From contig OY970224.1 of assembly GCA_963714035.1 (NCBI GenBank), positions 2,337,996 through 2,401,995 of the forward strand: a stretch of 64,000 nt of DNA. The letters run 5' to 3'. The translations under genes and the position numbers were made by a program. Shown here in pieces: positions 11,512-46,114 of this stretch; the first letter of the stretch is position 1; every line of letters begins with the position of its first letter. The notes beneath the pieces were generated by a model that worked only from the letters and a program-made list of their open reading frames with translations, had not been told where the DNA came from and did no database searches. The DNA is from an uncultured Acidobacteriota bacterium. GTDB taxonomy: Bacteria > Acidobacteriota > Thermoanaerobaculia > UBA5066 > DATFVB01.

Positions 11512-12431
11512 CGTTCCTGATCTCGCACGTCACGATCGCCACACCGTGGCTGATCGCGGTCGGATTCGTCGTCGGCATCCTCGGCGGATTTTTCGGCGTC
11601 GGCGGGTCCTTCCTCGCCGGCCCGGCGCTCTACGCGCTCGGCCTGCCGATGAACTACGTCGTCGGGACCGACATCGCCCACATCGTCGGGAAGTCGGTCG
11701 TCGCGGCGAAGAAACACCGCGCCCTCGGAAACGTCGACGTCAAGCTCGGGCTCGTCATGGCGCTCGGCACGATCCCGGGCGTCGAGCTCGGCGCGCGGCT
11801 GGTCCAGGTCCTGAAACGGACGAAGCATGCCGACGTGGCGCTCGGCCTCTCCTTCTCGGTCGTGCTTCTCGTGATCTCCGCCTTCATCACCTGGGAATCG
11901 ATCGGCGCGCTGCGCCGGAGCCGGGCGAGCCGCACCGGAAAGATCAAGACCAGGACCGCGCCGAAAAAGGACCGCCTCCACTTCAACTCGCTCTGGCAGT
12001 GGATCCACGGCATCCGGATCCGTCCGATGATCCGGCTGCCGGTCTCCGGCATCCGCGTCTCGTTCTGGGCGGTCCTCGCGGTGTCGCTCGTCGGCGGGTT
12101 CTTCTCCGGTTTCCTCGGCGGCGGGGCCGGGTACATCCGGATGCCGATGCTCGTGTACGTGCTCGGAGTCCCCACGCACGTCGCGATCGGGACCGACCTC
12201 TTCGAGATCATCCTCTCCGCCGGCTACGGCACGTTCTCCCACGCGCTGAAGGGGAACGTCGACATCCTGATCGCGCTCGTCATGCACACGGGCGCGGCCA
12301 TCGGCGCCCAGATCGGCGCCCAGGCGACCGAAAAGTTCCATGGGCCGGGAATTCGCCTCGCCTTCGCGCCGCTTCCGATCCTCGGTGCGGCGACCCTCCT
12401 CTACGAGCTGCACCATCGAGGACTGCTGTGA
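11508..12431 (+). CDS. TauE/SafE family sulfite/anion exporter
   Basis: Two-repeat 4+4 TM architecture with Gly-rich GGFFGVGGSFL and GGFFSGFLGGGAG motifs typical of TauE/SafE. Confidence 0.8.
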   Translation: MTFLISHVTIATPWLIAVGFVVGILGGFFGVGGSFLAGPALYALGLPMNYVVGTDIAHIVGKSVVAAKKHRALGNVDVKLGLVMALGTIPGVELGARLVQVLKRTKHADVALGLSFSVVLLVISAFITWESIGALRRSRASRTGKIKTRTAPKKDRLHFNSLWQWIHGIRIRPMIRLPVSGIRVSFWAVLAVSLVGGFFSGFLGGGAGYIRMPMLVYVLGVPTHVAIGTDLFEIILSAGYGTFSHALKGNVDILIALVMHTGAAIGAQIGAQATEKFHGPGIRLAFAPLPILGAATLLYELHHRGLL

Positions 12432-13315
12432 GCGACAAGACGATCGCGAAGGTTCTGCTCCTGGTCGCCGACTCGGAATCGGCGAAGACGGCGACCCGGT
12501 TCGCCGGAGTTCTGGCCGCCCGATGCGGCGCCGCGGTGACCGCGTTCTCGGTCGCGCGCCCGGGCGCGGTCCGCACCGACCTCGAGCACGCGCTCTCCGA
12601 GGCGACGACGACGCTCGGGAAATCTTCCGTCGCGGTCGAAACGGCGATCGTCGAAGGGGACCTGATCCCCGAAGCGGCGAAGAAGGCGAAGGACGGCTAC
12701 GACCTGACGATCTTCGGCGCGTCTTCGAGGACGGGACGCGAGGGCCGCCGTCTCTCGCTCGGCGTCTGGCAGCTCGCCAAGAGCGTCGAGACACCCGTGC
12801 TCCTCATCCCGCGCGAGGCGAAGCCGTCCGTCGAGCGAATCCTCGTCTGTACCGGCGGGGAGCGTTACATCGAGAAGGGCGTGCGGTTCGTCTCGATTTT
12901 GGCGGGCTGCCTCGGCGCGCAGGTCTCGCTCCTCCACATCCTTCCGGTCGCGCCGGAGATGTACCGCGCCTGGGCGCCGGAGCCGCGGGTCCCGGACCGG
13001 CTGCTCGCCGGAGAGAGCCGGCGCGCGCGCGTCCTGCGGGACCAGATCGCGATCTTCCAGAAGGAAGGCGTCGCCGCGAGCCTCGTCCTGGAGGAGAGCG
13101 ACTCGATCGAACGCACGATCTTCGACGTCTGCCGCCGGATCGACGCCCAGCTCCTCGTCGTCGGCTCGTCGCCCATCCGCGGGCGGCTGCGGACATCGAT
13201 GCTGGGAAGCGTCACGCGCGACGTGATCGTCCGCGCGAACGTGCCGGTCCTGATCGTCCGATCGAACCCGGCGGGGCTGCTGCGGGACCTCTGGAAGATT
13301 CTGAGGGAAGGGTGA
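12428..13315 (+). CDS. Tandem universal stress protein (UspA) domain protein
   Basis: Two Usp domains, each ending in an LVVGS...G...GSV-like ATP-binding motif. GTG start at 12428 overlaps the TauE stop (GTGA). Confidence 0.75.
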   Translation: MSDKTIAKVLLLVADSESAKTATRFAGVLAARCGAAVTAFSVARPGAVRTDLEHALSEATTTLGKSSVAVETAIVEGDLIPEAAKKAKDGYDLTIFGASSRTGREGRRLSLGVWQLAKSVETPVLLIPREAKPSVERILVCTGGERYIEKGVRFVSILAGCLGAQVSLLHILPVAPEMYRAWAPEPRVPDRLLAGESRRARVLRDQIAIFQKEGVAASLVLEESDSIERTIFDVCRRIDAQLLVVGSSPIRGRLRTSMLGSVTRDVIVRANVPVLIVRSNPAGLLRDLWKILREG

Positions 13316-13324
13316 GGGGAAGAA

Positions 13325-13493
13325 AACCCGAAGCACGAAATCCGAAATCCGAAACAAATCGAAAATCCGAATTCTCGAAGTAACAAAAAAGGGCGCGCCG
13401 GGGGCCATCCGGTCGATGAAATTCCCGATTCGGGTTTCGAAGCCTGGGGAATTTGAGTCTGTTTCGGATTTCGCGCTTCGAATTTCGAATTTC
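13325..13493. repeat. AT-rich palindromic MITE-like element (CGAAATCCGAAA ... TTTCGGATTTCG family), copy 1, immediately upstream of the kinase gene
   Basis: The left arm cgaagcacgaaatccgaaatccgaaacaaatcgaaaatccgaattc is the inverse of the right arm gaatttgagtctgtttcggatttcgcgcttcgaatttcgaatttcc. Related copies occur at 45880-46100 and 61217-61372. Confidence 0.7.
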
Positions 13494-13594
13494 CGCCGCC
13501 GCGCCGCGGCGGCGCGCCGCTCGTCCTCGCCGAATCGGCAGCGCTTCGTCCCGAACCGGCTCGTCGACGCCTTGCGATAGGATCGCGCAATCCC

Positions 13595-16500
13595 ATGATC
13601 GGAACTCGTCTGGCGAATCGATACGAGATCCTCGCGGAGCTCGGGAGAGGCGGCATGGGCGTCGTGTATCGCGCGAAGGATCCCGTGCTCTCCCGCGAGG
13701 TCGCGGTGAAGCTGATCCCTCCCACGACCCTGACTCCGGAAATGGAGGAGCGCTTCCAGCGCGAAGCGCAGACCGTCGCGCAGCTGGACCATCCGGCGAT
13801 CGTCTCCATCCACGATTTCGGGAACCACGAGGGATCGCTCTTCTTCGTGATGCCGGTCGTGGGTGGCACCAATCTCCGCCGGCTCCTCTGGGAAAAATCG
13901 CTCGTGCTCGGGGACGTCCTGGAGATCGGGATCCAGGTGGCGGAGGCCCTCGACTACAGTCATGCCCGCAGCGTCGTCCACCGCGACATCAAGCCGGAGA
14001 ACATCATGGTCGCGCGCGAGGAAGGCGGGACGCTGCGCGTGCGCGTCATGGACTTCGGGCTCGCGCGGGCGGCCTCCGAGAACCGGCTCACAAAAACCGG
14101 CGCGCTCGTCGGGACGGTCTCCTACTTCAGCCCGGAGCAGATCACGTCCCATTCCTTCGACGGCCGTTCGGACATCTATTCCCTGGGAACGGTGCTCTAC
14201 GAGTGCGTGACCGGAGAACCGCCGTTTTCCGGCGAGATGCAGTCGATCCTCTACCGCATCGTTCACCAGATCCCGCAGCCTCCCCGCGCGGTGGGCGCCA
14301 ACATCCGCGAGGAACTCGAGGAGATCATCCTCCGCTGCCTCGAGAAGGATCCGGCCAGGCGTCCCCAGAAAGCCGGCCTGATCGCGGAGGCGATCAAGCT
14401 CCACCGGGCCAAGCTCCAGGCCGACGAGTCCCGCCGGTCCGTCGTTCTCACCCCGAGCCGCCTGATCCCCCGCCCCGTTCTCGCCCCGTTCATCGGCCGC
14501 CAGAAAGAGTTCGCGGAGCTGCAGCGCCGGCTCAACTCGGCGATTGCCGGCGAGTGCCAGTTCGTCGTCGTCGCGGGCGAGCCCGGCATCGGCAAGACGC
14601 GTCTTCTCGACGAGCTCGCCCGGCTCGCCGAAGCGCTGAACGTCCGCGTCCTGCGCGGGCGCTTCATCGAGCAGGACCGCGCGTTCGCCCACCAGGGGTT
14701 CTGCGAGCTGATCCAGGACTACTTTCGCTCGAAAGAGGCGTCCACGGCCTCCGGCGAGCGGCGCGACTTCTCGGACCTGGCGCCCGAGCTCCTCGCGCTT
14801 TTCCCGGTCCTCGGCGAGATCCCCGAGCTCCGTTCGGCAGCGGCCAGCGACTCGAAGCTTTCCGCCGCGGCGGAAAACCGACGCCTCGAAGACAAGACGG
14901 CGATCTTCGAGCTCCTCGCGCGGACCCTGACCCGGATGGCGGGCGGGAAGCCGCTCCTCCTGGTCCTCGAGAATCTCCACGGGGCGGAGGCTTCGATCGA
15001 GGCGCTCCAGTACGTCGTCCGGCGACTCGGTCCCACGCCGACGTGCATCGTCGCCAGCTACCGCCAGACGGAAGTCGACAAGCGGCATCCGCTCTCCCGG
15101 ATGCTCGACGGCTTCCAGGACGACCCTCGCTTCGCCTCCATGACGCTCGGGTCTTTCTCGCCCTCCGAGCACCGCGCGCTCGTCGAATCGGTGGCCGGCG
15201 GGGCGAAGATCGCCGATTCCCTGGCGCAGCGGCTGCTGGACGCGACGGAGGGAAATCCGTTCTTCACGAAGGAGCTCGTCCGCTCGATGATCGACACGGG
15301 CGGCATGGCGAAGGACCGGACGGGCGAGTGGAATTTCTCCGGAGGGACCGCGATCTCCTCCGAGAATCTCCCCGCCACGATCCAGCAGGCGATCGAAAAG
15401 CGCATCCAGCGACTTCCCGAAGAGCTCCGCGAGGTCCTGTCGGTCGCCTCGGTCCTCGGCAAGAGCTTCGAATTCCGGGACCTCGAGACGATCCTCGAGG
15501 GATCCAGGGACGCCGAGGACCTCGTCGAACGGCTCGTGCGCGAGGGCATCCTGGAGGAGGACCGGGAGTCGCGAGGCGACCGGCTGGCGTTTGCGAGCGG
15601 AATCGTCCGCGACGTGCTCTATTCCGAGCTCTCGCGGCGAAAGCGCCGCTCGCTCCACCGGAAGCTGGCCGAGATCCTCGAGAAGCGGCACGCGGGACGG
15701 CTGGAACGGATCTATCCCGAGCTCGTCCACCACTTCTCCGAAGGGGACGTCCCCGAAAAGACCGTCGACTACGGGCTGAAGCTCGCGCGGCGCTCGCTGG
15801 ACTCCTTCAGCGCCGACGAGGCGATCCGCGCGGTGAAGACGACGCTCGAGTACCTCGAGGACGAGGAGTGGCCGGGAGACCGCGCTCTCGAAGGGGATGC
15901 GCGGATGCTGCTGGCGCGGGCGCACCGCCTGGCGGGCAACGTGGAGGGAGCGCTCGACGAGTCGGAGGCGGCCGTCCGGGTGTTCGATCGCGAAAAGCAT
16001 CCCGACCGGAGCGCGGCCGCCCTGCTCTTCGCCGCGGAGAGCGCCTGGCAGGAGCGCCGCATCGACGAGGCGCGCCGGCTGGTCGAGCGCGGAATCGAAG
16101 CCGCGCGCTCGCGGGAAAAATCCGAGACGCTGTGGAAGCTCCTCTCGCTGGCCGCGACGGTCGCCAATCTCCGCGGGGAGTACCAGAGGGCATCCTCGTA
16201 TCTCGCCGAGATCGAACGTTTCGCGCCGAAGGAAAAGACAGAGGAGCAGGCGATTTCTCCGGGAGGCCGGCTCGCGGTCGGCATGCCCAACCCCGTCGCC
16301 GCGACCGAACCGTCGCTCGTGCAGACGATCGAGGAGGCCGAAGTCCTTCGGAACGTCTTCGAGACCCTGCTCACCACCGACGCGCGCGGCAATCTCGCTC
16401 CCCTGCTCGCCGAGAGCTGGGAAGTTTCCGGGGACGGAATGAAGGTCCGGCTGAAGCTGCGGCCGGACGTGCGCTTCTCCGACGGCTCGCCGCTCGACGC

Positions 16501-19258
16501 CGTGTCCGTCAAGGCCTGCGTCGAACGCAACGTCCGATTGCGCGGCGCGGAGACGCCCGCGGCCTTCGGAGCGATTCTCGGAGTTCGCGAGTTCCTCGAG
16601 AGCGGCGCCGATGCCGTCGCCGGAATCCGGGCGGGCTCCGATGGCGAGCTCCTGATCGAGCTCTCGGAATCCCTGCCGATCTATCCCGCGCTGCTGACCG
16701 ATCCGCAGACGGGCATCAGCCGGGAAAAGGACGGCCGATTCTTCGGCACCGGTCCGTTCCAGACGGCAGAATGGAGTAAGGATCGGATCGTCCTGGAACG
16801 CCATCCGCTCTGGTGGAAGGCGCCGCCGGCCCTGCTCGACAGCATCGAATTCCGAACGTCGTTGTCCGCGGCGGCGATCGCCTCGGGGCTGCGGTCGGGC
16901 GAGATCGACCTCGCGCGAGATCTCCTGCCGCAGGACGTCGAAGAGATCTCCCGCGACCCGCGGTTCCGCCCCGGCTTCGTCGAAACGCCGAAGAAGGACA
17001 CCTATTTCATCCTTTTCCAGACCTCGAGCACCGTCGGCTCGAATCCGGCGATGCGCCGGGCCCTGGCGGGCGTCGTCCGGGCCCAGGATCTGGTCTGGAG
17101 CACGCTCGGGCGATTCGCCCTGCCGGCAACCGGGCTCCTTCCCCCCGGAATTCTCGGTCACGATCCCGGCCGCCGCCGGCCGCATCTGGCCCGCGAGAAG
17201 GCCGCCGAGATGGCGGCATCCTCGGGCCTCACCCTTCCGCTGCGACTCAAGGCGTCCGTCCATCCGATATTCCAGGATCGCTGCCGCGCGCTGACGGCCC
17301 GGATCTTTTCCGCCTGGCGCGACCTCGGCGTGGAGGTCGACGTCGAAACGCCGACGATGGCGGAGTTCCTGGAATCGTGGGGGAAGCCGGGAAACGTCGG
17401 TCTGATGCTCGGCCGATGGAACGCCGACTACGACGACCCGGACAACTTCACCTATTCGCTCTTCCACTCCGGCAACGGGCTCTTGAAGGCGTACTTTTCG
17501 AGCCCGGAGAGCGACCGGCTCCTCGAGGAGGCTCGCTCCGAGAGCCGCCCCGCCGCGCGGGAGGCGCTCTACCGGAAATTCGAGAACGCCCTTCTCGACT
17601 CGGACGTCATCGTTCCGCTCCTCCACGACGTCGACTACCGGGTGGCCAGCCCGGCCGTCCGGGGGCTCGAGCTCCGCAGCAGCGCCCCGTTCGTCAACTA
17701 CGCCGAAATCGGAAAAGTCGCCTCGGTTCCCGAGCCGGCCGAGGCGCCGCTCCGCGCCTGGACCGAAGGAATCGTGCACGTGCCGATCGCGGGCGACTTC
17801 AAGGAGCTCGATCCGGTCTATGCCGATACCGCGCAACAGGTCGAGACGCTTCCGAGCATCTTCGAGGCGCTGACCCGGGACGTCCGGGGAGGGCAGATCG
17901 TCCCGTGGCTCGTCTCCGAATTCGTGGCGGAGGAGGGGGGTCGGAGATTCCGCTTCCGCCTGCGGCCCGGCGTGCGCTTCCACGACGGCCGACGACTCAC
18001 CTCCCGGGACGTTCGAGCGAGCTTCGAACGTTTGCTCCAGACGCCGAAGAGCCAGACGCGATTCCTGCTTTCCTCGGTCCGGGGCGCGGATCGGATCATC
18101 GCGGGGCAGGCGACCGAGCTCGAGGGCTTCCGCATCCTCTCGCCATCGGAATTCCTGATCGATCTCGAGCAGCCGATCGCGTTCTTTCCCGCTCTGCTTT
18201 CCTACCCGGCCCTGGCGATCCTGCCGGAAGGAACGGGCAAGGTGGGTGTCGCATGGCGCGAAGGCTGCGTCGGCACGGGGCCTTTCCGCGTCGTGAGCTT
18301 CGAGCCGGGCCGCCGGCTCGAAACGGAGCGAAACCCGCTGTACTGGCGGGAAGGCCTTCCGAAGAGCGAGGGACTCGTTTTTCACTTCGCCGTGACCCCC
18401 GAGACGATTCGCAACGAGTTCCTCGCGGGACGATATTCGCTCGCCTCCGACCTGCTCCCCGTCGACGCGGAAGCGTTCCGCCAGAACCCGCTGTACGCGC
18501 CGAACTACCGGGAAGTCCCCAGACTCACGACCTATTACGTCGCCTTCAATTCTCACAGGGGTTTCTTCGCGGACCCCGAGCGCCGGCGCGGCATGGCCGC
18601 GGCGTTCAGCGCTCCCGAAATCGTCCGGCGCACCCTCGGCCGCATCGCCGTGCCCGCGACGGGGCTCATCCCGCCCGGACTGCTGGGCGCGGACGCCGCT
18701 TCCGCGGTGAAAGACGCTCGGGCGGCCCGCCCCGAAACTGCGTCCGGCGAGCACACCGTCTCGCGGGAGACGACCGAAATCTCCCTCGTCCTGCACCCGG
18801 TCTTCCTCGGGGAGTTCTCGGCGTTCTACACCGAGCTCCGGCAGATCCTGCGCGAAGCGGGATTCGTGCTTCGACCGGTCAACGGAGACTCGATGCCCGA
18901 GTTCGTCGAGGCCACCGGCCGGGGCGATGCCGACCTGTTCATCGGGCGTTGGAACGCCGACTATCCCGATGCCGACACGTTCGTCCACGGCGTCCTTCAT
19001 TCGCTGGCGGGCAACAATCGAAATTTCTGCTCGAGCCCCGAAATCGACCGGCTGGTCGAACAGGGGCGCACCGAGCTCGACCCGCGCGCGCGCCATTCGA
19101 TCTACCGGAAGGTCGAAGAGTTGATCGCCCGGGAGGTCCTGATCGTCCCGCTCTTCCACGAGCGCCTCTATCGCTTCGCGCGGCCCGAGATCGAAGGGCT
19201 GAACGTCGGTTTCGGCGTGACGGCGGTGCCTTACGAGGAGCTGCGGATCCGACACTGA
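13595..19258 (+). CDS. Giant multidomain protein: Ser/Thr protein kinase, STAND/AAA_16 ATPase, TPR-like region, then two SBP_bac_5 (OppA/DppA-type) solute-binding domains
   Basis: Kinase motifs GRGGMGVVY, VAVK, HRDIKPENI and DFGLA are present. The P-loop is VVAGEPGIGKTRLL. Two ~480-aa family-5 SBP domains follow (LAESWEVSGDG...RFSDGSP and LVSEFVAEEGGRRFRFRLRPGVRFHDG). No TM segment or signal peptide was detected. Confidence 0.85.
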   Translation: MIGTRLANRYEILAELGRGGMGVVYRAKDPVLSREVAVKLIPPTTLTPEMEERFQREAQTVAQLDHPAIVSIHDFGNHEGSLFFVMPVVGGTNLRRLLWEKSLVLGDVLEIGIQVAEALDYSHARSVVHRDIKPENIMVAREEGGTLRVRVMDFGLARAASENRLTKTGALVGTVSYFSPEQITSHSFDGRSDIYSLGTVLYECVTGEPPFSGEMQSILYRIVHQIPQPPRAVGANIREELEEIILRCLEKDPARRPQKAGLIAEAIKLHRAKLQADESRRSVVLTPSRLIPRPVLAPFIGRQKEFAELQRRLNSAIAGECQFVVVAGEPGIGKTRLLDELARLAEALNVRVLRGRFIEQDRAFAHQGFCELIQDYFRSKEASTASGERRDFSDLAPELLALFPVLGEIPELRSAAASDSKLSAAAENRRLEDKTAIFELLARTLTRMAGGKPLLLVLENLHGAEASIEALQYVVRRLGPTPTCIVASYRQTEVDKRHPLSRMLDGFQDDPRFASMTLGSFSPSEHRALVESVAGGAKIADSLAQRLLDATEGNPFFTKELVRSMIDTGGMAKDRTGEWNFSGGTAISSENLPATIQQAIEKRIQRLPEELREVLSVASVLGKSFEFRDLETILEGSRDAEDLVERLVREGILEEDRESRGDRLAFASGIVRDVLYSELSRRKRRSLHRKLAEILEKRHAGRLERIYPELVHHFSEGDVPEKTVDYGLKLARRSLDSFSADEAIRAVKTTLEYLEDEEWPGDRALEGDARMLLARAHRLAGNVEGALDESEAAVRVFDREKHPDRSAAALLFAAESAWQERRIDEARRLVERGIEAARSREKSETLWKLLSLAATVANLRGEYQRASSYLAEIERFAPKEKTEEQAISPGGRLAVGMPNPVAATEPSLVQTIEEAEVLRNVFETLLTTDARGNLAPLLAESWEVSGDGMKVRLKLRPDVRFSDGSPLDAVSVKACVERNVRLRGAETPAAFGAILGVREFLESGADAVAGIRAGSDGELLIELSESLPIYPALLTDPQTGISREKDGRFFGTGPFQTAEWSKDRIVLERHPLWWKAPPALLDSIEFRTSLSAAAIASGLRSGEIDLARDLLPQDVEEISRDPRFRPGFVETPKKDTYFILFQTSSTVGSNPAMRRALAGVVRAQDLVWSTLGRFALPATGLLPPGILGHDPGRRRPHLAREKAAEMAASSGLTLPLRLKASVHPIFQDRCRALTARIFSAWRDLGVEVDVETPTMAEFLESWGKPGNVGLMLGRWNADYDDPDNFTYSLFHSGNGLLKAYFSSPESDRLLEEARSESRPAAREALYRKFENALLDSDVIVPLLHDVDYRVASPAVRGLELRSSAPFVNYAEIGKVASVPEPAEAPLRAWTEGIVHVPIAGDFKELDPVYADTAQQVETLPSIFEALTRDVRGGQIVPWLVSEFVAEEGGRRFRFRLRPGVRFHDGRRLTSRDVRASFERLLQTPKSQTRFLLSSVRGADRIIAGQATELEGFRILSPSEFLIDLEQPIAFFPALLSYPALAILPEGTGKVGVAWREGCVGTGPFRVVSFEPGRRLETERNPLYWREGLPKSEGLVFHFAVTPETIRNEFLAGRYSLASDLLPVDAEAFRQNPLYAPNYREVPRLTTYYVAFNSHRGFFADPERRRGMAAAFSAPEIVRRTLGRIAVPATGLIPPGLLGADAASAVKDARAARPETASGEHTVSRETTEISLVLHPVFLGEFSAFYTELRQILREAGFVLRPVNGDSMPEFVEATGRGDADLFIGRWNADYPDADTFVHGVLHSLAGNNRNFCSSPEIDRLVEQGRTELDPRARHSIYRKVEELIAREVLIVPLFHERLYRFARPEIEGLNVGFGVTAVPYEELRIRH

Positions 19259-19295: not shown

Positions 19296-19597
19296 GAGGC
19301 GATCTGTCATCCCGAGCGAAGCGGCCTGCCGCGCCGACTCGTCCCGCCGAGGCTTCAGCGAAGGAGGAAGCCCTGGCGAAGGCGGGAAGGATCTTCGCCG
19401 GCAGGCGAGTTGCGGGTTGCGAGTGAAGAGTGCGAGACCGGGGCAGATCCTTCGTCGCTTCCGCCTTCGCTCTCCGAGCTACGGCGGACAAGTCGCTCCT
19501 CAGGATGACAAGGTGGGGAATGTCATCCTGAGCGTAGCGAAGGATCTGCTCCGTCGGTTTTCCGCAACTCGCCAACTCGGAACTCGCCAACTCGTAA
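19296..19597. repeat. Composite block of two dispersed repeat families (GTCATCC[TC]GAGCGAAGCG..AAGGATCTG and GGCGAGTTGCGAGTTGCGAGT) between convergent genes
   Basis: Contains gtcatcccgagcgaagcggcctgc, cagatccttcgtcgcttccgcc, ctcctcaggatgacaaggtggggaatgtcatcctgagcgtagcgaaggatctg, plus ggcgagttgcgggttgcgagtg and its inverse gcaactcgccaactcggaactcgccaactcg. Confidence 0.75.
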
Positions 19598-20173
19598 CTA
19601 GTGTTTCAGCGCCGTCTCCAGCTTCCCGGTGTTCGCGTCCACGATCACCGACAGTCCGCCGCTCTTCGACTGGTCCTTCGTGAAATTCAGGTACCAGAAG
19701 GCGCGTCGCGTCTGCGGCTCGGCATCCGATCCGAGCATGACGGCGTAGCCCTGCGCGATCAGGCTGCCGCCGTGCTCCTTCGCCATCGCGTAGAGCTTCG
19801 CGCCGTCCCGGAAGAAGCCGGGCTTGAGATCCGGAATCCGGCCGGACGGGTTCGGCATCGCGAAGCACGTGAGGTATCCGGCGTTGGTCGAAACGAAGAC
19901 GCTCTGCTTCGCGCTCTCCGACCAGAACTGGAGGTTCCAGGCGACCGACGTTCCGTCGGGTTGCAGCGGGCCGAGCACGGTGTTCTCGATCTTCGCCGGG
20001 ACGGCGTCCTTCTTCCACGCCTTCGCGAAACCTTCCGCTTTACCGTACATGTCGGCGAGTGTCAGCGCCGGCTTCGGCAGGGCGACGGTCTTGCACGCCT
20101 CCTGAGCATCTGCCGTCCAAAAAGCAAAGAGCGCGACCGCGGCAAACAATACACGAAACAGGCCGTTCTTCAC
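19598..20173 (-). CDS. Secreted hypothetical protein
   Basis: Signal peptide MKNGLFRVLFAAVALFAFWTADA. No recognised domain. GTG start. Confidence 0.5.
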   Translation of the reverse strand: MKNGLFRVLFAAVALFAFWTADAQEACKTVALPKPALTLADMYGKAEGFAKAWKKDAVPAKIENTVLGPLQPDGTSVAWNLQFWSESAKQSVFVSTNAGYLTCFAMPNPSGRIPDLKPGFFRDGAKLYAMAKEHGGSLIAQGYAVMLGSDAEPQTRRAFWYLNFTKDQSKSGGLSVIVDANTGKLETALKH

Positions 20174-20229
20174 GAAGTCTCCTCCCGCTGTTTTCGCGGA
20201 AGGGTATCACCGGCGAAGCCAGTGGCGAG

Positions 20230-20314
20230 TTGCGAGTTGCGAGTTGCGAGTGACAAACGCCATGACCCGCCACCCGTAACTCGCAAACGCGAAACTCGCC
20301 ACTGCGGCCGCCCC
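20230..20314. repeat. Hairpin repeat of the GGCGAGTTGCGAGTTGCGAGT family
   Basis: cagtggcgagttgcgagttgcgagttgcgagtgacaaacgccatgacccgccacccgtaactcgcaaacgcgaaactcgccactg is an almost perfect inverted repeat. Related copy at 50075-50184. Confidence 0.75.
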
Positions 20315-29047: not shown

Positions 29048-29103
29048 GGAGGGCGCTCCTTTTCAGTCTGTGTGACCTGCGTTAACTGCCTAACCACCCG
29101 GGT

Positions 29104-29460
29104 TCAGCGGCGGCACGGCGCGCCTGAGGCGTCCCGAACCGTGATCGCTAGGAAATCGGCGTCGGTTGAAACCATCTCAGGCTGAATGTTCTTGGGAAGT
29201 GCACAGAACTCTTGACGCCGGACTTCGCCGGATAAACTCTTCAGCTGCTCGGCGGATAAGTGGATGAGCCGTGACGAGACCCCAGGATGAACACACGTAT
29301 CTTCGCTCCGTCGGTGAGCGAAACCCGACGCATAGATTGCCGTGTACCATCCTGCACCGCACCATACCGTTCGCTCGACCTCGATGATCGGCTTCTCCTC
29401 AGCGCCAAAGGCCACTGATGCAATCAGCACGATCATTCCGCCAACGGTGACTAGCCGCAT
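29104..29460 (-). CDS. Secreted hypothetical protein
   Basis: Signal peptide MRLVTVGGMIVLIASVAFGA. Confidence 0.45.
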   Translation of the reverse strand: MRLVTVGGMIVLIASVAFGAEEKPIIEVERTVWCGAGWYTAIYASGFAHRRSEDTCVHPGVSSRLIHLSAEQLKSLSGEVRRQEFCALPKNIQPEMVSTDADFLAITVRDASGAPCRR

Positions 29461-29513
29461 AACGACCCGGCTTCAGCGGCAAGGCCGAAGTCCGCTGCAA
29501 GCCGATGTTCGGG
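29461..29513. repeat. Island REP-like hairpin element, copy 1
   Basis: aacgacccggcttcagcggcaaggccgaagtccgctgcaagccgatgttcgg, with paired CAGCGG/CCGCTG and CGAAC/GTTCG arms. Confidence 0.75.
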
Positions 29514-29520
29514 GTGCGCA

Positions 29521-30140
29521 TCATTTGGGCGCCTTTCGCGCACCCGTGTCAACAACGAACTCATGCTGCTTCCGGCTCCACCGATATCGCCTGTCCCCAC
29601 TACTTTGGGTCAGTTGGGCGTTGTTGTACACGCCGACTCGAAAACCGTTCTCGGTGGGCCAGATGCCGATAGAGCTGGATATACCACCGAACCTATCGCC
29701 AGCGATCGGGAGAGCGCTTATGCGACCGCTGGGAGCGATGGTGAGCACGTGGTAGCCAGAGAAACCCATGCAGCTCGGCTGCTCGATTGTGAAATCCGGG
29801 TCGCCGTCGTCGTTGTAATCGTCAAATTCCAGCTGAGTCTCACCGTTTCTCAAGAATGTGAGGTCGGGTTCGCCGGTCACCTCGTTCAAATCGGTAGTGA
29901 CTTGTGTTCCAGTGTCGAGCGTGGCGATTGCTTTAAACTGGCCAACCCACACGTCAGCCGCAGGCCCAGCGCAGCTCTTGGCTTCCGGCCTCGCGTTGCC
30001 GACTTCGATTCGTACGGCCGCCACTTTCATACTCAGATCCGCCCGGACGATGGAGTTTACGACTACGGCTGGCTTTTCGGCCGCCACGGCGGAAACCGTC
30101 ATCGTTAGCCCCGCAAGTATTGCCAAAGTGCTCGAGAACC
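29521..30140 (-). CDS. Secreted hypothetical protein; the start is approximate because the annotated N-terminus runs into REP copy 2
   Basis: Signal-like segment TLAILAGLTMTVSAVAA. The ORF-track start at 30228 would translate the REP element (IGFQRTARLRLAAAEA). Confidence 0.45.
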
Positions 30141-30149
30141 ATCGCGCCC

Positions 30150-30212
30150 CGAACGACCAGGCTTCAGCGGCGGCAAGCCGCAGGCGCGCCGTCCGCTGAA
30201 AGCCGATGTTCG
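30150..30212. repeat. Island REP-like hairpin element, copy 2
   Basis: cgaacgaccaggcttcagcggcggcaagccgcaggcgcgccgtccgctgaaagccgatgttcg. Confidence 0.8.
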
Positions 30213-30224
30213 CCCGCCCGCCGA

Positions 30225-30770
30225 TCATCGTGAACCGACCAGTATCTGCGCCGGCGCAGCCTCAAGCCTCGTGTCGTAGCAGCCATAAACGTCGCAATCA
30301 GAGCCGTACACGATTGATTGCGACACGCTGACTCGGGCGGGCCCTTCGCCGACATCTGGAATTCGTACAGAATCGGTCCAGGTAAACGTTGCCTTGGGAT
30401 CGACGTGGAACGTTGACTTGCAGTACGGGTGGCCTACACGCGTCGAGAGCCCTCTGCTCCGCGCGCTGCCATCGAATCTGATGTCCCGACTCGAGCCAAT
30501 GCAGCCCTCAATGGTCTGATCGCCGCTGTTCGTTACGCCGAGCCGGACGATTACTTCCTGGTTGGCGGTGACATGGTCGGCGGAGAGGCTGATCGATAGG
30601 GCAAGATTCTCGCGGTAGCGGGCGAGCTGAGCGGTGATTCGTGTCCATGCCTCGGGCGAAGCCCGTTGGGGTAGCGTCTGTCCAGACCGTTGCGGAGAAT
30701 GGTTCTGGTTTTGCGCTGCGCAAGAGAACCCGAGGGCAGCTACGATGCCGATGACCACCACACCACTCGC
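30225..30770 (-). CDS. Secreted hypothetical protein; start approximate for the same reason
   Basis: Hydrophobic segment VVVIGIVAALGFSCAA. The upstream part of the ORF translates REP copy 3. Confidence 0.4.
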   Translation of the reverse strand, partial: ASGVVVIGIVAALGFSCAAQNQNHSPQRSGQTLPQRASPEAWTRITAQLARYRENLALSISLSADHVTANQEVIVRLGVTNSGDQTIEGCIGSSRDIRFDGSARSRGLSTRVGHPYCKSTFHVDPKATFTWTDSVRIPDVGEGPARVSVSQSIVYGSDCDVYGCYDTRLEAAPAQILVGSR

Positions 30771-30808
30771 CTTACACCTGCTCAACGGTAAGCCTCGCTC
30801 GGGGCGGG

Positions 30809-30873
30809 CGAACGACCCGAGTTCAGCGGTGGCGAGCCGCAGGCGAGCCGTCCGCTGCAAGCCGATGTTCGGG
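30809..30873. repeat. Island REP-like hairpin element, copy 3
   Basis: cgaacgacccgagttcagcggtggcgagccgcaggcgagccgtccgctgcaagccgatgttcggg. Confidence 0.8.
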
Positions 30874-30886
30874 AACGTCAGATTAC

Positions 30887-31624
30887 TCATTCAGCGGGCC
30901 ATGTGAACCGAAATTGTACGTGAGTACCAGCCGGCACCCCATCGAGAACGTCGCTTCCGTCCGGTCTCGTCACGGCAAATCCCAGACCAGGAGGACGCCG
31001 AAGGGTCTCAGCAGCCAAATTATCCGGCGGCGTGATCGCGAAGAGGGTCTCGACCGCAAAAGCCCGCGACACGATACCGTTGAGCTCACCCGCTTTGGTC
31101 CAATGGAAGTCGAGTTGAAATCTTGCATCCTCAGGTCTTGTCGTGAAGGTGCCGGGCGTGACGTACATTGCCCACTCTTTCGGCCAAGGACTCTTTCCGA
31201 AGAGGCCCTGAACCCAAGCTGGGGGAATGACGGAGACTCCAGGTATCGATTTGGCGCTAATCGCGCCACAGATCAATTTCATAAACCATTTTTCGAGACC
31301 ACGCCCGTCGAGGTTAGCGGCGATGTCTGACGCTCGGCCACGGACCCCGGTGCTCAAATGGTTCTGCCCTGCGACCAGCATCAGATTTCGGAAGTAGTCT
31401 CGCGCGTTACCGTCTAGACCGTCCAAGTCGTCGTGATGCTTTGCGCAGACGACATATCCGTGACCGTACGAGCCCGGCGCCATCGCTTTTGAGGAGCCCG
31501 CCTGCCACGCGAAGCCAGCGACCGTTACGGAACCCAGCATCACCTGCAGACTCCGTGAAATGAAGTGCTCGTCCTCAATGGCGCCAGAACAGTCGCCGAG
31601 AACCTCTGCGTAGCATTTCGCCAT
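30887..31624 (-). CDS. Cytoplasmic hypothetical protein with a possible His-Me finger / HNH-like motif
   Basis: 245 aa with no signal peptide. A C..C...H then CAKHHDDLDGLDGN......N.......NH arrangement is reminiscent of HNH, but the match is weak. Confidence 0.35.
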   Translation of the reverse strand: MAKCYAEVLGDCSGAIEDEHFISRSLQVMLGSVTVAGFAWQAGSSKAMAPGSYGHGYVVCAKHHDDLDGLDGNARDYFRNLMLVAGQNHLSTGVRGRASDIAANLDGRGLEKWFMKLICGAISAKSIPGVSVIPPAWVQGLFGKSPWPKEWAMYVTPGTFTTRPEDARFQLDFHWTKAGELNGIVSRAFAVETLFAITPPDNLAAETLRRPPGLGFAVTRPDGSDVLDGVPAGTHVQFRFTWPAE

Positions 31625-31664
31625 TTCTCAGGCCTTGTCGATTACCCGATACTGCTTACGTTCC

Positions 31665-31728
31665 CGAACGACCTGGCTTCAGCGGCGGCAAGCCGCAGGC
31701 GCGCCGTCCGCTGCAAGCCAATGTTCGG
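31665..31728. repeat. Island REP-like hairpin element, copy 4
   Basis: ccgaacgacctggcttcagcggcggcaagccgcaggcgcgccgtccgctgcaagccaatgttcgg. Confidence 0.8.
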
Positions 31729-31736
31729 CGTCTTCG

Positions 31737-32276
31737 TCATGACCGCGATGACCTGAGTACCATTGCCAGCGTGACCAGGAGACTCGCTAATATGCCAAGA
31801 ACGAGAATTCCAAGTGGGCGTTGATACCACGGAAGTATTGGGTGATCAGCCTCTAAGGCACGCCGTACCTCTGGACGAAGAGTTTCTGAAATTGCCTTCA
31901 TCTTATTCCTGAGGTTCGGTGCTAGGGCAGGCAGCCCGATTCCCGCCGCGACCGCGGACAGCCGCGATTCGTATCCGGCCGCGATCGTGTCGATCTCGGA
32001 GAGTGCGGCGCGTGACAGCCGGGCCGCCGCACGTTCCCTCAGCCAGCCAACCCTGGGTTTGGGAAGAAGGGCGATTCGCGTGAGACACAGTTGTTTCGCC
32101 TCCTCCAGCGCGTCGCAATAGATTTGGGAGTAGCCAGCCAGCAGGGCGCTTGAACGTGCCCGCCCGGCGCTAGCCTGCGAATTCGCCTCGCGTTCTAGGC
32201 GCTCCGTGACCCGCGCGTTGTGGTCCCGCCACGCTGCCTGACACTCTGCCAGGAGCCGTGACACATCGTTACTCAT
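31737..32276 (-). CDS. Hypothetical protein with a C-terminal TM anchor
   Basis: 179 aa. The helical N-terminal region is cytoplasmic-looking; a hydrophobic helix sits at the C-terminus (LGILVLGILASLLVTLAMVL). Confidence 0.4.
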   Translation of the reverse strand: MSNDVSRLLAECQAAWRDHNARVTERLEREANSQASAGRARSSALLAGYSQIYCDALEEAKQLCLTRIALLPKPRVGWLRERAAARLSRAALSEIDTIAAGYESRLSAVAAGIGLPALAPNLRNKMKAISETLRPEVRRALEADHPILPWYQRPLGILVLGILASLLVTLAMVLRSSRS

Positions 32277-32297
32277 GCACGAGCCAACGCGTCTTGG

Positions 32298-32540
32298 TCA
32301 TTGGCGTAATCCCCGGATCACCCGAAACATGCCTACCAGCAGGAAAAACACCGCGGCGTAGACCGCAAAAGCGGCCGCTGAACATGCCCCGAGGAAGACG
32401 AGTGAACCGTGCATCAAAGCCCAGCCCGTGAAGAACCCAGATAATGGACGCTCCGTGAAGAATGGGACCGCGACACTCGGTAGCGTCGCTGCTGCGACGA
32501 CTGCGGTCAGGATTCCAGCCTTGCTCTTATCGGAACGCAT
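32298..32540 (-). CDS. Small membrane protein (2-3 TM), hypothetical
   Basis: 80 aa, strongly hydrophobic. Confidence 0.4.
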   Translation of the reverse strand: MRSDKSKAGILTAVVAAATLPSVAVPFFTERPLSGFFTGWALMHGSLVFLGACSAAAFAVYAAVFFLLVGMFRVIRGLRQ

Positions 32541-32874
32541 CTTCAGACGCCGAACATGTAATTAGACGTCCTCAGTGTTTTCGACAAACGCGGCGAGAAA
32601 CGGTCAAAAAGGCGCATCGGCACCTCGCAGGTCAAATTGTAGCCCCTTCATCAGGCCCATCGTCATCGACGACTCTCCCTCGCCAGCCGGTCGATTTTCA
32701 GCCGCCTAACACCGGCGAACACCGGATCTGGTAATGCCAAAAAGGCGGGGTTTCTGGCTTCCACTCGAGCTCTCCATCCATCCTCTTCATCGCGTGGTCG
32801 TGCGGATGGGGACATGGCCAGAGATCCGAGAGGGCGAGCATGGTGGAACGGGGTGCGATAATCGCGGCCACCCT

Positions 32875-32951
32875 TCGGGGCGTAGCGCAGCCCGGTAGCG
32901 CTCCTGCTTTGGGAGCAGGAGGTCGTCGGTTCAAATCCGACCGCCCCGACC
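32875..32951 (+). tRNA. tRNA-Pro (anticodon TGG)
   Basis: Acceptor stem CGGGGCG/CGCCCCG, D-stem GCGC/GCGC, anticodon arm CCTGC-TTTGGGA-GCAGG, T-arm GTCGG-TTCAAAT-CCGAC, discriminator A, and CCA encoded. Folded by hand. Confidence 0.85.
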
Positions 32952-32958
32952 ATGATTT

Positions 32959-40529: not shown

Positions 40530-43500
40530 GTGGCGGAAGCCCTCCGGCGCGCGGGGGTGCGCGCACAAACCGACCGCGCGGGGGTACCCGCGAAGACTGA
40601 GGGCGCGGAAGTGCGCGCCCAGACTGAACGCCCGGGGGTGCGGGCGCAGACAGAAGGCGCAGGCCGCCGTCGTCTCGTCGTCTCCGGCGCCGTCGGCGCT
40701 CTTCCGGGCGCGATCGCCGCGCTCCTTTCCGAATCGGCACCGGTGCTCGTCATCGCCGCCGACGAAAGCTCCGCCGAAACCGTCGCATCGGACGCCGCGG
40801 CGTTCGGCGGCGGAGGGATCTGCGTCGCCCCCGAACCGTCGCTCACTCCCTACCAGCGCGTCGCGCCGTCGCTGAAGTACCGGCGCTCGGAGTTCGCTCT
40901 CCTCACGGCTCTCGCGGAGAACGGCTGCCGGATCGCGGCCGTCCCGGCGCGGTTCCTGTTCGCCCGCCTGCCCTCCCCCGAGGGCTTCACCGAGCGGCGG
41001 TTCCCCGTCTCGCGCGGCGGGACGGCCGAACGCGGGGCGCTTCTGGCGTTCCTCGCGCGGGAGGGGTATGCCGCGACCGACCTCGTGACCGAAACCGGCG
41101 ACTTCGCCGCCCGCGGCGGAATCGTGGACGTGTTCCCGCCCGACCGCGACCGCCCGATCCGCATCGAGCTCGACGGCGACGAGGTCGCCTCGATCCGCAC
41201 GTTCGACCCGGACACGCAGCGCTCGGACGCCGTGCTCGAACGCGTCGTCGTGGGCCCCCTCGCCGCGGTCTCCGAGTCGGAGGAGGCCGAGGCGCTCCTC
41301 GAAGAGACGCTCGGCCGCGTCCCGTCCTCCGCCGAGAAGACGCTCTTCCTCCCGGCCGTCGCGGGCAACGCCGCGACGATCTTCGATTTCGCTCCCGGAG
41401 CGCAGGTCGTCGTGCTCGAGCCCGCCGCGGTCGAGGAGGCTCTCGCGCGGTGGAGCGACCGGGTCGCCGCGGACTACGAGCCCGAACGCGACGCGATCGC
41501 GCCCGAAGCGCTCCTCCACCCGGTCGCCGCGATCCGCGACGCGCTCGCCTCCCGGACCGGCGTGGCGCTCGACCGGCTCGGGCTCGCCGCCGGCTCTCCC
41601 GTCGCGCTCGCGGCCGAGGAGGTCACGGCGTTCGACGGACGCGTGCGCGAGGCTGCCGACGAGCTCCGCGCGGCGGCGGCGCGCGGCGAGAGCGTACTGG
41701 TGGCGGTGCATCCGAAGGGAGGCGCCGAGAAGCTCCGGCGGTTCGCCCGGGAATTCGACGTCGCGGCGACCGCGATTCCGGGACCGATCTCCGCCGGGTT
41801 CCGGCTGCGCGACGACGCGCTTTCGGTCTGGGCCGAGGAGCAGATCTTCGGCGCGGAACGGACCACCCCGGCGCCGCGGCGGCGCGCCTCCGAAGCCTTC
41901 CTCTCCGATCTGCGGGACCTGAAGCCCGGCGACTTCGTGGTCCACGCCGATTACGGGGTCGGCCGATTCCGGGCATTGAAACGCATCCCGGTCGAAGGGA
42001 GCGAGCACGAGTTCGTCGAGATCGGCTACGTCGACGACAAGACGCTCCTGCTTCCCGTCGAGCGTCTCGATCTCGTCCAGAAGTACTCGGGCGCGGAAGG
42101 GGGCGAGCCGAAGATCGACCGGCTCGGCAGCGCGTCGTGGGGGCGCAAGAAGGACGCGGCGCGCAAGGCCGTCAAGGACCTCTCCGAAGACCTGATCCGG
42201 ATCTACGCGCGGCGCGCGCAGGCGCAGGGTTTCGCGTTCTCGAAGGACTCTCCCTGGCAGAAGGAGTTCGAGGACGCGTTCGAGCACGTCGAGACTCCCG
42301 ACCAGGCGCAGGCGATCGCCGACGTCAAGCGCGACATGGAGCGCCCGTCGCCGATGGACCGGCTCCTCTGCGGCGACGTCGGATACGGAAAGACCGAGGT
42401 CGCGATGCGCGCCGCTTTCAAGGCGGTGCTCGACGGCAAGCAGGTCGCGGTGCTCGCGCCGACGACGATCCTCGCGGACCAGCACTACCGGACGTTCACG
42501 CGCCGATTCGCCGCGTTTCCCGTGACGATCGACCTCCTGTCGCGGTTCCGCGACCGCGCCGAGCAGAAGCGGATCGCCGCGAAAACCGCCGAAGGCGGCG
42601 TGGACATCCTGATCGCGACCCACCGCCTGCTCTCGAAGGACATCCGGTTCCGCGATCTCGGGCTCCTCGTCGTCGACGAGGAACAGCGGTTCGGCGTCGC
42701 GCAGAAGGAGCGGATCAAGGAATGGAAGGCGTCGGTCGACGTGCTCTCGATGTCGGCGACGCCGATCCCGCGTTCGCTGAACCTCTCGCTCTCGGGGCTG
42801 CGCGATCTCTCGATCATCGAGACGCCGCCGCGCAACCGCCTGGCGATCGAGACGCAGATCATCCCGAAGCACGGAGACCTCGTGCGCGAGGCGGTCGCGT
42901 TCGAGCTCGAGCGCGGAGGCCAGGTCTTCTACGTCCACAACCGCGTCGAGTCGATCCTCGCCGAGAAGACGTTCCTCTCGGAGCTCCTCCCGAACGCGCG
43001 CATCGTCGTGGGCCACGGCCAGATGAGCGAGGGAGGGCTCGAGCGCACGATGCTCGACTTCGTCGCCCGCAAGTACGACATCCTCCTCGCGACGACGATC
43101 ATCGAGAACGGCATCGACATCCCGTCGGTCAACACGATCGTCATCGACCGCGCCGACACTTTCGGGCTGTCGCAGCTCTACCAGCTCCGCGGCCGCGTCG
43201 GCCGGAGCGACAAGGCCGCGTACTGCTTCCTCGTGATCGAGCCGGACGCGGCGCTGACGGAGACGGCGCGGCAGCGCCTCGCGACGATCCGCGAGTTCTG
43301 CGACCTCGGGGCGGGCTTCCGGATCGCGGCGAAGGACCTCGAGATCCGCGGCGCCGGGAACTTCCTCGGCGCCGAGCAGTCGGGCCACATCGCCGCGGTC
43401 GGCCTCGAGATGTACCTCGACCTGCTCGACGAAGCGATGCGCCAGATCAAGGGAGAGGAGATCCTGCCGGAGCGGACGGTCACGATTTCGCTCGGAAGCG

Positions 43501-43898
43501 ACCTGTCGATCCCGGCGGCCTACCTGCCGGAAGAGAGCCTGCGGCTGGCGCTCTACAAGCGGATCGCCCGGGCGCGCGACGATGCCGAGATCCGGGAGAT
43601 CGCGAAGGAGACGGAAGACCGCTTCGGGCCTCAGCCTCCCGCCGTTGCGAACCTGATCGAATACGGACGCCTCCGCCGGCGCGCGGAGCGTCTCGCGATC
43701 AAGTCGATCGAGCGGCGGCGCGCGGGATACCGGCTCGTCTTCGACGCGGAGTCCCGGGCGCAGCCGGGAAGGGTCGTCGCTCTCCTGCGCGGGAAGGAAG
43801 GCGCGTCGGTTTCGCCGACGGGCGTCGTCTCGCTTCCGGGCGACTGGAACGTCGAGAAGGTGATGGCGTTCTTGGACGCGCTTCTGGAGGCCGCATGA
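40530..43898 (+). CDS. mfd: Transcription-repair coupling factor Mfd (the start may lie inside the tandem repeat, e.g. GTG at ~40638)
   Basis: UvrB-homology N-terminal domains, the RNAP-interaction/TRG region, superfamily-2 helicase motifs (GDVGYGKTEVA, DEEQRFG), and the C-terminal TRCF domain. Confidence 0.9.
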   Translation: MAEALRRAGVRAQTDRAGVPAKTEGAEVRAQTERPGVRAQTEGAGRRRLVVSGAVGALPGAIAALLSESAPVLVIAADESSAETVASDAAAFGGGGICVAPEPSLTPYQRVAPSLKYRRSEFALLTALAENGCRIAAVPARFLFARLPSPEGFTERRFPVSRGGTAERGALLAFLAREGYAATDLVTETGDFAARGGIVDVFPPDRDRPIRIELDGDEVASIRTFDPDTQRSDAVLERVVVGPLAAVSESEEAEALLEETLGRVPSSAEKTLFLPAVAGNAATIFDFAPGAQVVVLEPAAVEEALARWSDRVAADYEPERDAIAPEALLHPVAAIRDALASRTGVALDRLGLAAGSPVALAAEEVTAFDGRVREAADELRAAAARGESVLVAVHPKGGAEKLRRFAREFDVAATAIPGPISAGFRLRDDALSVWAEEQIFGAERTTPAPRRRASEAFLSDLRDLKPGDFVVHADYGVGRFRALKRIPVEGSEHEFVEIGYVDDKTLLLPVERLDLVQKYSGAEGGEPKIDRLGSASWGRKKDAARKAVKDLSEDLIRIYARRAQAQGFAFSKDSPWQKEFEDAFEHVETPDQAQAIADVKRDMERPSPMDRLLCGDVGYGKTEVAMRAAFKAVLDGKQVAVLAPTTILADQHYRTFTRRFAAFPVTIDLLSRFRDRAEQKRIAAKTAEGGVDILIATHRLLSKDIRFRDLGLLVVDEEQRFGVAQKERIKEWKASVDVLSMSATPIPRSLNLSLSGLRDLSIIETPPRNRLAIETQIIPKHGDLVREAVAFELERGGQVFYVHNRVESILAEKTFLSELLPNARIVVGHGQMSEGGLERTMLDFVARKYDILLATTIIENGIDIPSVNTIVIDRADTFGLSQLYQLRGRVGRSDKAAYCFLVIEPDAALTETARQRLATIREFCDLGAGFRIAAKDLEIRGAGNFLGAEQSGHIAAVGLEMYLDLLDEAMRQIKGEEILPERTVTISLGSDLSIPAAYLPEESLRLALYKRIARARDDAEIREIAKETEDRFGPQPPAVANLIEYGRLRRRAERLAIKSIERRRAGYRLVFDAESRAQPGRVVALLRGKEGASVSPTGVVSLPGDWNVEKVMAFLDALLEAA
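40551..40658 (+). repeat. Tandem 27-bp direct repeat x4, in frame with the mfd ORF (9-aa units GVRAQT[DE][RG]A)
   Basis: The units are gcgggggtgcgcgcacaaaccgaccgc, gcgggggtacccgcgaagactgagggc, gcggaagtgcgcgcccagactgaacgc and ccgggggtgcgggcgcagacagaaggc. Confidence 0.8.
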
Positions 43899-46100: not shown

Positions 46101-46114
46101 TTTCCCCCGCTGAC

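Follow-up and report, generated by a model that had tools for sequence, protein, structure and literature searches.

Three AT-rich elements with heptad-periodic inverted arms in a Thermoanaerobaculia genome belong to a cross-phylum family of small, mobile-looking repeats close to stop codons

The window analysed here is a stretch of 64,000 nt from an uncultured member of the Thermoanaerobaculia (Acidobacteriota). Its GC content is 67.5%, and it contains three AT-rich islands, termed E1, E2 and E3, all of which lie in spacers of co-directional gene pairs. Gene context was derived from a custom GC3-trained ORF caller together with Pfam and homolog names. The ORFs that cross the elements are spurious low-complexity readings only. 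The elements and the features around E1 are:

12428-13315, plus strand: UspA-family gene (PF00582) upstream of E1, stop codon at 13313..13315, 7 nt before E1
13323-13493, no strand assigned: E1, 171 nt, 48% GC, canonical family member with boundaries set by the arm HMM; left arm 13323-13381, GC-richer centre 13382-13438, right arm 13439-13493
13494..13519, no strand assigned: GC-rich palindrome CGCCGCCGCGCCGCGGCGGCGCGCCG directly after E1, found by inverted-repeat search and spacer comparison
13595..19258, plus strand: Ser/Thr kinase-AAA gene downstream of E1 (Pfam PF00069), ATG at 13595
~45880-46110, no strand assigned: E2, 231 nt, 52% GC, divergent variant with CCAAATT/GGAATTT modules; left arm ~45885-45943, right arm ~46042-46110
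61218-61372, no strand assigned: E3, 155 nt, 43% GC, canonical, boundaries set by the arm HMM; left arm 61218-61281, right arm 61309-61372

E1 ends 101 nt before the kinase start codon. E2 fills the spacer between a SurA-like PPIase gene, whose stop codon ends at 45876, and a DUF971 gene with its ATG at 46116, leaving ~3-9 nt on the stop side and ~5-15 nt on the start side. E3 lies between rodA (stop codon 61199-61201) and rng (ATG at 61396), at distances of 16 and 23 nt, respectively. An earlier sequence-only reading had placed the elements 25-100 bp before a start codon on the same strand. A same-strand start indeed follows in all three cases, at distances of 101, ~5-15 and 23 nt, and the preceding stop codon is nearer each time. 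No functional theme is shared by the flanking genes (Usp/kinase, surA/DUF971, rodA/rng).

The description of the islands as three related AT-rich elements with inverted arms was borne out. They lie at the positions given in the sequence-only reading, have 43-52% GC against 67.5% in the window, and in each of them an inverted-repeat search detected two complementary arms, A-rich on the left and T-rich on the right. The degenerate 17-mer GAAATYCGAAATYCGAA, with up to three mismatches, matched the window 13 times and every match fell within E1, E2 or E3; shuffled sequence gave an expectation of 0.79, and 13 matches were reached in 0/100 shuffles. The matches were split by strand, those on the plus strand always lying in a left arm and those on the minus strand always in a right arm. 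The three copies within this 64-kb window are strongly diverged from one another. E1 and E3 matched the family arm HMM strongly, with E values of 1e-9 to 1e-13 (E1: 13324-13381, plus, E 2e-10, and 13492-13439, minus, E 1e-9; E3: 61222-61281, plus, and 61372-61309, minus, E 1e-13). The match of E2 was weak (left arm 11.5 bits, right arm 2.2 bits), and its modules read CCAAATT where the canonical ones read CGAAATC. The CCAA modules and the GGAGTTTC end of E2 recur in two of the loci fetched for comparison, L141 and L144, and CTAA modules are found in L047. As its CCAA modules and its end recur in other members, we regard E2 as a divergent member of the same family.

The architecture of the family was drawn from an arm HMM trained on 41 arms and a gap-free alignment that took in 27 copies. 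Among 33 non-redundant two-arm copies there is a single arm consensus with a sharp outer boundary, AAATCCGAAATTCGAAnnnCGAAATCCGAAACAAATCCGAATGACC, which forms a terminal inverted repeat of ~60 nt. The arm is built of 7-nt modules in which CGAA (TTCG in the other arm) is invariant and the remaining triplet varies (e.g. ATC, ATT, GCA or TAT). Four of them are followed by an 11-nt landmark, CGAAACAAATC, and then by two or three weaker modules. Conservation across phyla amounts to 90-100% in the CGAA/TTCG columns, in contrast to the variable triplets that separate them. At both ends the HMM consensus begins sharply at (N)AAATYCGAA, so that the element ends read AAATYCG...CGRATTT. The centre is variable and often GC-richer. 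The family copies measured are 109-225 bp long, and E2 has 231 nt. Two classes of two-armed copies were distinguished. In class I, to which E1, E2 and E3 correspond, an A-arm precedes a T-arm and the full consensus is (N)AAATCCGAAATTCGAA-nnn-CGAAATCCGAAACAAATCCGAATGACCRAAA followed by its mirror image; in class II a T-arm precedes an A-arm and the arms are plain (GATTTCG)n ... (CGAAATC)n arrays. Most copies look decayed, with ~30% of arm positions mismatched. Arm identity between elements (0.724) equals that between both arms of one element (0.725), and hence each arm looks like an independent, ~15%-diverged copy of one master, whatever the host.

A scan of species-representative genomes (one per species) with the 17-mer located at least 120 loci. 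The 17-mer has two two-fold positions and ~280 chance matches are expected in 596 Gb, so single matches prove nothing; many of the loci, however, have multi-unit runs or two inverted arms. According to the labels of the records, class I hosts include Planctomycetota/Gemmataceae/Pirellulales, Syntrophobacteria (Desulfobacterota), Parcubacteria (Patescibacteria), Binatia, Thermoanaerobaculia and others, host taxonomy being taken from MAG record titles. Loci from Verrucomicrobiota have heptamer runs or simpler two-armed forms. Host GC content spans 33-72%. The landmark 18-mer matched 32 IMG/VR contigs, many of which have complete two-arm copies, and a stretch of 32 nt is identical between E1 and a copy in a Planctomycetota MAG. 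In an Rfam search of the whole window only tRNA reached the gathering threshold, and at a permissive threshold the best match of E1 had 14.5 bits (E = 0.77) and pointed to no family. In the literature, exact 13-14-mers matched only unrelated primers, and topic searches yielded analogues (heptamer repeats, REP tags) and not this family. The arm consensus had no BLAST match among plasmid and phage records, in a search whose low-complexity filter possibly masked the query. The object is of a known type, a dispersed palindromic intergenic repeat. This particular family of small, mobile-looking elements, with its heptad-periodic arms, cross-phylum spread and stop-codon-proximal position, is apparently undescribed in Rfam 15 or in the searched literature. 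For the same 60-nt consensus to occur across phyla, horizontal transfer would have to be very wide, or else a binding partner would have to be conserved.

Orthologous sites in relatives were compared for all three elements. At the E3 site the rodA-rng spacer has 30 nt and no element in L122 and L125, whose Rng proteins are 93-94% identical; in L124 (Rng 75%) rodA and rng overlap, and in L123 (86%) an unrelated GC-rich stretch takes the place of E3. By this comparison E3 is a lineage-specific insertion of ~155-175 nt. The spacer between surA and the DUF971 gene has 26 nt in L136 and L137 (77% DUF971 identity) and harbours canonical, very different class I copies in L130 and L131 (82%) and in L132-L135 (85%). 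L127-L129, the closest relatives (92%), have another palindromic element at this site, which is GC-rich. E1 was found in L170 and L171 (93% Usp identity), where it is 97.1% identical, and is absent from L176-L178 (89-90%), L172 and L173 (83%), L174 (75%) and L175 (70%). In L172, without E1, a related GC-rich palindrome lies directly after the Usp stop codon, which indicates that E1 was inserted between stop codon and hairpin. Because some close relatives are without the element at each site, E1, E2 and E3 are lineage-specific insertions, and their gain and loss take place over times comparable to species-level divergence.

One detail of the "empty" rodA-rng junction of L122 (2950-3000) was recorded separately: the 14-nt 3' end of rodA including its stop codon, TCGCGAATGCCTGA, occurs twice, 10 nt apart. 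This duplication may have been left behind by an excised element, or it may be coincidental. The idea of a 13-14-nt target-site duplication or excision footprint derived from the rodA 3' end was dropped, as a family-wide alignment of flanks gave it no support.

The position of the family relative to genes was evaluated for HMM-defined copies whose neighbours could be called with the same custom ORF caller, on which the following figures depend. Gene pairs were co-directional in 22/25 cases, convergent in two and divergent in one. At the same loci co-directional pairs make up 75% of gene pairs (p = 0.10) and 64% of intergenic bases (p = 0.008). Copies began a median of 13 nt after the upstream stop codon; the next start codon followed at a median of 23 nt, with a tail reaching 889 nt, and the element was closer to the stop than to the start in 16/22 cases. 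In long spacers, too, the element stays beside the stop, for example at 4/474, 19/889 and 7/101 nt (stop/start). Residual spacers of 60 nt or less, calculated without the element, accounted for 11/22 copies; such spacers comprise 2.7% of intergenic bases (p = 3e-12) and 38% of spacers. This excess indicates that insertion or survival acts once per gene end and not once per intergenic base. The location upstream of gene starts is thus a by-product of insertion into short spacers of co-directional genes. Across genomes the copies track the upstream stop codon, and their distance to the next start is looser.

We further looked for transcription signals and RNA structure. No sigma-70 -35/-10 pair was found on the gene strand inside E1, E2 or E3, and the sole sigma-70-like site in the vicinity of E3 falls beyond its boundaries and on the other strand. 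A search for intrinsic terminators gave one weak candidate in the centre of E2 (45954-45969), which is at shuffle level, and none in E1 or E3. Terminator-like centres with a GC hairpin and a T-run do occur in a few members, e.g. L022 and L110, and are not a family trait. RNA-folding z-scores were -1.1 for E1, -3.6 for E2 and -1.6 for E3; the hairpins are imperfect and E2 alone clearly beats its shuffles. Covariation was not detected between the arms: 76.1% of cells pair as compared with 76.9% with shuffled partners (461/500 shuffles were at least as high), in a fixed-column test of the kind that is blurred by shifts of 7-nt modules. When register shifts were allowed, hairpins formed by an element's own arms did not exceed chimeric hairpins in stability (-44.35 versus -44.33 kcal/mol; Wilcoxon p = 0.61). 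Arm matching is widely spread, L130, L036 and L141 being much better than expected and E1 and E3 worse. The variable triplets are mostly unpaired in the mirror structure. Mispairs on the sense strand comprised 104 G·U and 103 A·C, without a bias towards G·U, and therefore RNA-level selection on the transcribed strand is not visible.

Further readings were considered and discarded. Apparent compensatory G:C-to-C:G changes in E2 were set aside because the CCAA/CTAA modules are also present in L141 and L047 and there is no family-wide covariation. An integron attC site does not fit ends that are without RYYYAAC/GTTRRRY cores, conservation of sequence and not of structure, and neighbours that are housekeeping genes and not cassettes. 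Assignment to the REP/REPIN group fails on arms of ~60 nt, elements of more than 100 bp and ends reading AAATYCG...CGRATTT, with no GTAG/CGTC head.

Taken together, we consider E1, E2 and E3 to be probably (at a rough probability of 0.6) copies of a non-autonomous, MITE/ERIC-like interspersed mobile element of ~110-230 bp. This reading is based on discrete ends, long inverted repeats, varying presence, one consensus across hosts and viral contigs, and the lack of covariation. It agrees with the suggestion of a MITE-like family in the sequence-only reading, which is upheld by the discreteness of the elements, their ~60-nt terminal inverted repeats and sharp ends, varying presence at 3/3 sites and many copies elsewhere. 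A transposase or recombinase that recognises the heptad-periodic ends would move the elements in trans. They would land, or survive best, at gene 3' ends, where the operon transcript would include them as an imperfect AU-rich hairpin; the host would usually be little affected, and the elements would not act as promoters. Among ~170 fetched loci, the search for an autonomous partner revealed neither arm pairs 0.5-6 kb apart nor a transposase beside solo arms. Target-site duplication was assessed by flank alignment, for which the overall score was no higher than for controls (p = 0.10). A weak direct-repeat signal came from short words shared at the ends: 4-mers in 13/31 cases versus 22% in controls (p = 0.009) and 5-mers in 4/31 versus 4% (p = 0.03). 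No clear duplication is present at the E3 site, the sole clean empty/filled pair.

The rate of change of E1 also bears on its nature. In comparison with its ortholog in L170, E1 has five substitutions and one indel in 171 nt (97.1% identity), none of the changes being compensatory. Four-fold sites nearby are 71% (TauE), 75% (Usp) and 86% (kinase) identical between the window and L170, the leader adjoining E1 is 90% identical, and over the first 1.2 kb of the kinase gene third codon positions are 90-93% identical. Under the most conservative local rate the conservation of E1 has a probability of ~0.001. That E1 evolves more slowly than flanking sites suggests constraint, or recent exchange of the segment between lineages, rather than free decay. 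For E2 the comparison with L001 gave 2/231 versus 3/1083 differences, counts that are too few for power.

Slow evolution of this kind is among the points that speak for a cis-acting platform, the main alternative, which we regard as possible though unlikely. Here, the CGAA-NNN array, as part of a 3' UTR, of intercistronic RNA or of single-stranded DNA, would bind an oligomeric nucleic-acid-binding protein and would tune mRNA stability, processing or translational coupling. In our view, a 7-nt period is easier to reconcile with recognition of a single strand than with a protein reading one face of duplex DNA. The near-invariance of the CGAA/TTCG columns across phyla with varying triplets, the location of copies inside transcription units just past stop codons, and the evolution of E1 at a rate 2-7 times slower than that of neighbouring synonymous sites point in the same direction. 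Binding has been proposed for arrays of the heptamer TAACTGA beside start codons, with S1, Csp or CsrA as the proteins (MacGregor, 2015; PMC4679880), and in L090 and L013 the same heptamers as in our family bracket genes for PF05635 four-helix-bundle proteins. These points have to be weighed against varying presence at housekeeping junctions among close relatives, the missing functional theme among flanking genes and the decayed appearance of most copies. A bolder version, which is speculative and distinctly doubtful, would combine both functions: (CGAA+NNN)n would be the platform of a conserved oligomeric nucleic-acid-binding protein, with PF05635 (Avd/"23S IVS") as the candidate, in a cross-phylum, gene-3'-end-targeted system that is mobile and also acts on operon mRNA. 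If true, this would explain the cross-phylum 60-nt consensus, the placement at stop codons and the slow change of E1. Local slippage and expansion of a heptamer microsatellite followed by inverted duplication, i.e. a non-mobile, STRR-like origin, would account for variation in module order among copies, since 7-nt units would come and go, and for the (GATTTCG)n/(CGAAATC)n runs of 3-8 units that occur widely among the fetched loci, either singly or paired in inverted T-then-A order. Other heptamer arrays, (CGCAACT)n and (AGTTGCG)n, exist in the window itself. We nevertheless hold such an origin to be improbable, because the A-then-T class has a complex, non-periodic consensus (the GCA/TAT module, CGAAACAAATC and GAATGACC) with sharp ends in several phyla, which independent expansions would not reproduce, and because E1 shares its 32-nt identity with the Planctomycetota copy.

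Two readings that assign the elements to the downstream genes fared worst. Supply or modulation of a promoter by an UP-element or curved DNA, as envisaged in the sequence-only reading, could draw on the AT-richness of the elements in a GC-rich genome and on their location 5-101 nt upstream of a same-strand start codon in 3/3 cases. Yet the sigma-70-type hexamer pair is absent from the gene strand of all three (promoters of this phylum being poorly known), the copies keep to the upstream stop codon, and some have convergent genes on either side. Moreover, the surA-DUF971 and rodA-rng junctions have 26-30 nt or overlap in relatives, which indicates co-transcription with no need for an added promoter, and A-tracts spaced at 7 bp are out of helix phase, from which we would expect no intrinsic bend. 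The conserved leader of the kinase gene likewise lies outside E1 and is unchanged whether or not the element is present. A promoter function is therefore not supported and in our judgement very unlikely. No more credit can be given to an operator by which one transcription factor would co-regulate the three downstream genes. A binding site for a common regulator had been suggested in the sequence-only reading; inverted-repeat symmetry and recurrence before three genes speak for it and are outweighed by the occurrence of the same sequence beside unrelated genes in unrelated phyla, by arms of ~60 nt that lie 50-110 nt apart, unlike an operator, and by gain and loss of the sites among close relatives.

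The leader in question comprises ~80 nt (13515-13594; ...cgcttcgtcccgaacc...ttgcgataggatcgc...) and is kept in relatives with and without E1 (L170 and L172). It is more likely than E1 to be the site of the kinase gene's own promoter or regulation.

Several observations on heptamer arrays stand beside the family. The PF05635 genes lie at 2671-3133 in L090 and ~3440-3900 in L013, with (GATTTCG)n upstream and (CGAAATC)n downstream, i.e. in T-then-A order, opposite to that of the window elements; L090 has a second PF05635 gene at 833-1147. In the window, inverted arrays of (CGCAACT)n / (AGTTGCG)n are found at 19563-19599, 20221-20251 and ~19404-19432. They bracket a gene for a secreted protein (19598-20173, minus strand; no Pfam match), with a further array beyond, and the heptamer CGCAACT is close to the CGCAATC variant of class II arrays elsewhere. 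Different heptamer arrays directly adjoin family members from other phyla in L016 (3880-3980), L082 (5100-5210 and 6380-6530) and L154 (380-540); they comprise (CATCGGA)n, which runs into (GATTTCG)n, as well as (TCTGGTA)n, (TTACGCA)n and (CACTCCG)n. This suggests that a process generating heptamer arrays is general in these lineages.

The probable mobile element described here can be compared with established small repeats. ERIC/IRU sequences of enterobacteria are imperfect palindromes of ~127 bp. The family resembles them in size class, in the long imperfect palindrome, in its transcribed intergenic location including operons, in varying presence, in a consensus kept across fairly distant hosts and in being without a known transposase. 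It differs in its unrelated sequence, which is heptad-periodic (CGAA+NNN) and AT-rich in GC-rich hosts, in spanning phyla and in its position near the upstream stop codon. Bacterial MITEs include Correia/NEMIS of Neisseria, RUP of Streptococcus pneumoniae and Chunjie of Geobacter uraniireducens. With these, the family shares a non-coding nature, a length below 300 bp, terminal inverted repeats and dispersed copies. Chunjie reportedly inserts between co-directional genes and leaves the operon intact, as our family does, and co-transcribed hairpins, probable for the window elements, are a feature of Correia. Unlike Correia and RUP with their clear TA duplication, the family has a weakly indicated target-site duplication, and in contrast to all these MITEs its inverted repeats stand out by their length (~60 nt) and internal repetition, with no cognate IS in ~170 loci. 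REP/BIME and REPIN sequences are associated with RAYT transposases (Di Nocera et al., 2013, PMC3733652; Bertels and Rainey, 2011, PMC3116915). REPs are 20-40 bp long, have a GTAG or CGTC head, are linked to RAYT and are species-specific (PMC3733652). As in REP/BIME, which are thought to act on mRNA 3' ends, our elements are extragenic palindromes just past stop codons and within operons, but they have 110-230 bp, are without those heads and have one consensus across phyla. Heptamer repeats are known as cyanobacterial STRR and as TAACTGA repeats of Beggiatoaceae, Cyanobacteria and Bacteroidetes (MacGregor, 2015; PMC4679880). These are likewise 7-nt periodic, intergenic and near gene ends, with patchy cross-phylum spread and no known mechanism of transfer. 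They are simple direct arrays located mostly just upstream of starts, whereas our family consists of bounded inverted-repeat units past stops. Its arms, though heptad-periodic, have mixed triplets, the 11-nt landmark and an inverted architecture; simple arrays of the same heptamer exist in other loci.

The window contains further features apart from the family. A second, GC-rich palindromic family is present at ~19443-19550 (gatccttcgctacgctcaggatgaca ... tgtcatcctgagg ... cgaaggatc); a related copy (L127, 1150-1270) is what replaces E2 in the surA-DUF971 spacer of the closest relatives, and fragments follow the Usp gene in L176-L178 (L176, 2780-2815). A stretch of ~3.9 kb at 29048-32958, with a GC content of ~60% and without the genome's GC3 coding signal, adjoins a tRNA (32876-32949). 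It contains adjacent paralogous ORFs (29521-30228 and 30225-30890, minus strand) with the common N-terminus NIG(F/L)QRTARLRLA and looks like a horizontally acquired islet at the tRNA. Finally, a 27/54-nt tandem repeat with ~4 copies and 72-77% matches (40548-40660) lies at the 5' end of ORF 40530-43898, a Mfd/TRCF-like gene as judged from synteny with L130.

In model bacteria, REP, ERIC and Correia palindromes shape operon expression and genome plasticity. To our knowledge, almost nothing has been reported on small palindromic repeats in those uncultured phyla by which soils and sediments are dominated. The family presented here gives such lineages a defined consensus and an HMM. Its copies cause spurious "hypothetical protein" calls, such as a 67-aa gene inside the L130 copy, and they mark recent insertions and deletions between close strains. 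They also raise the questions of how one 60-nt sequence persists across phyla and how the elements come to land within ~15 nt of stop codons.
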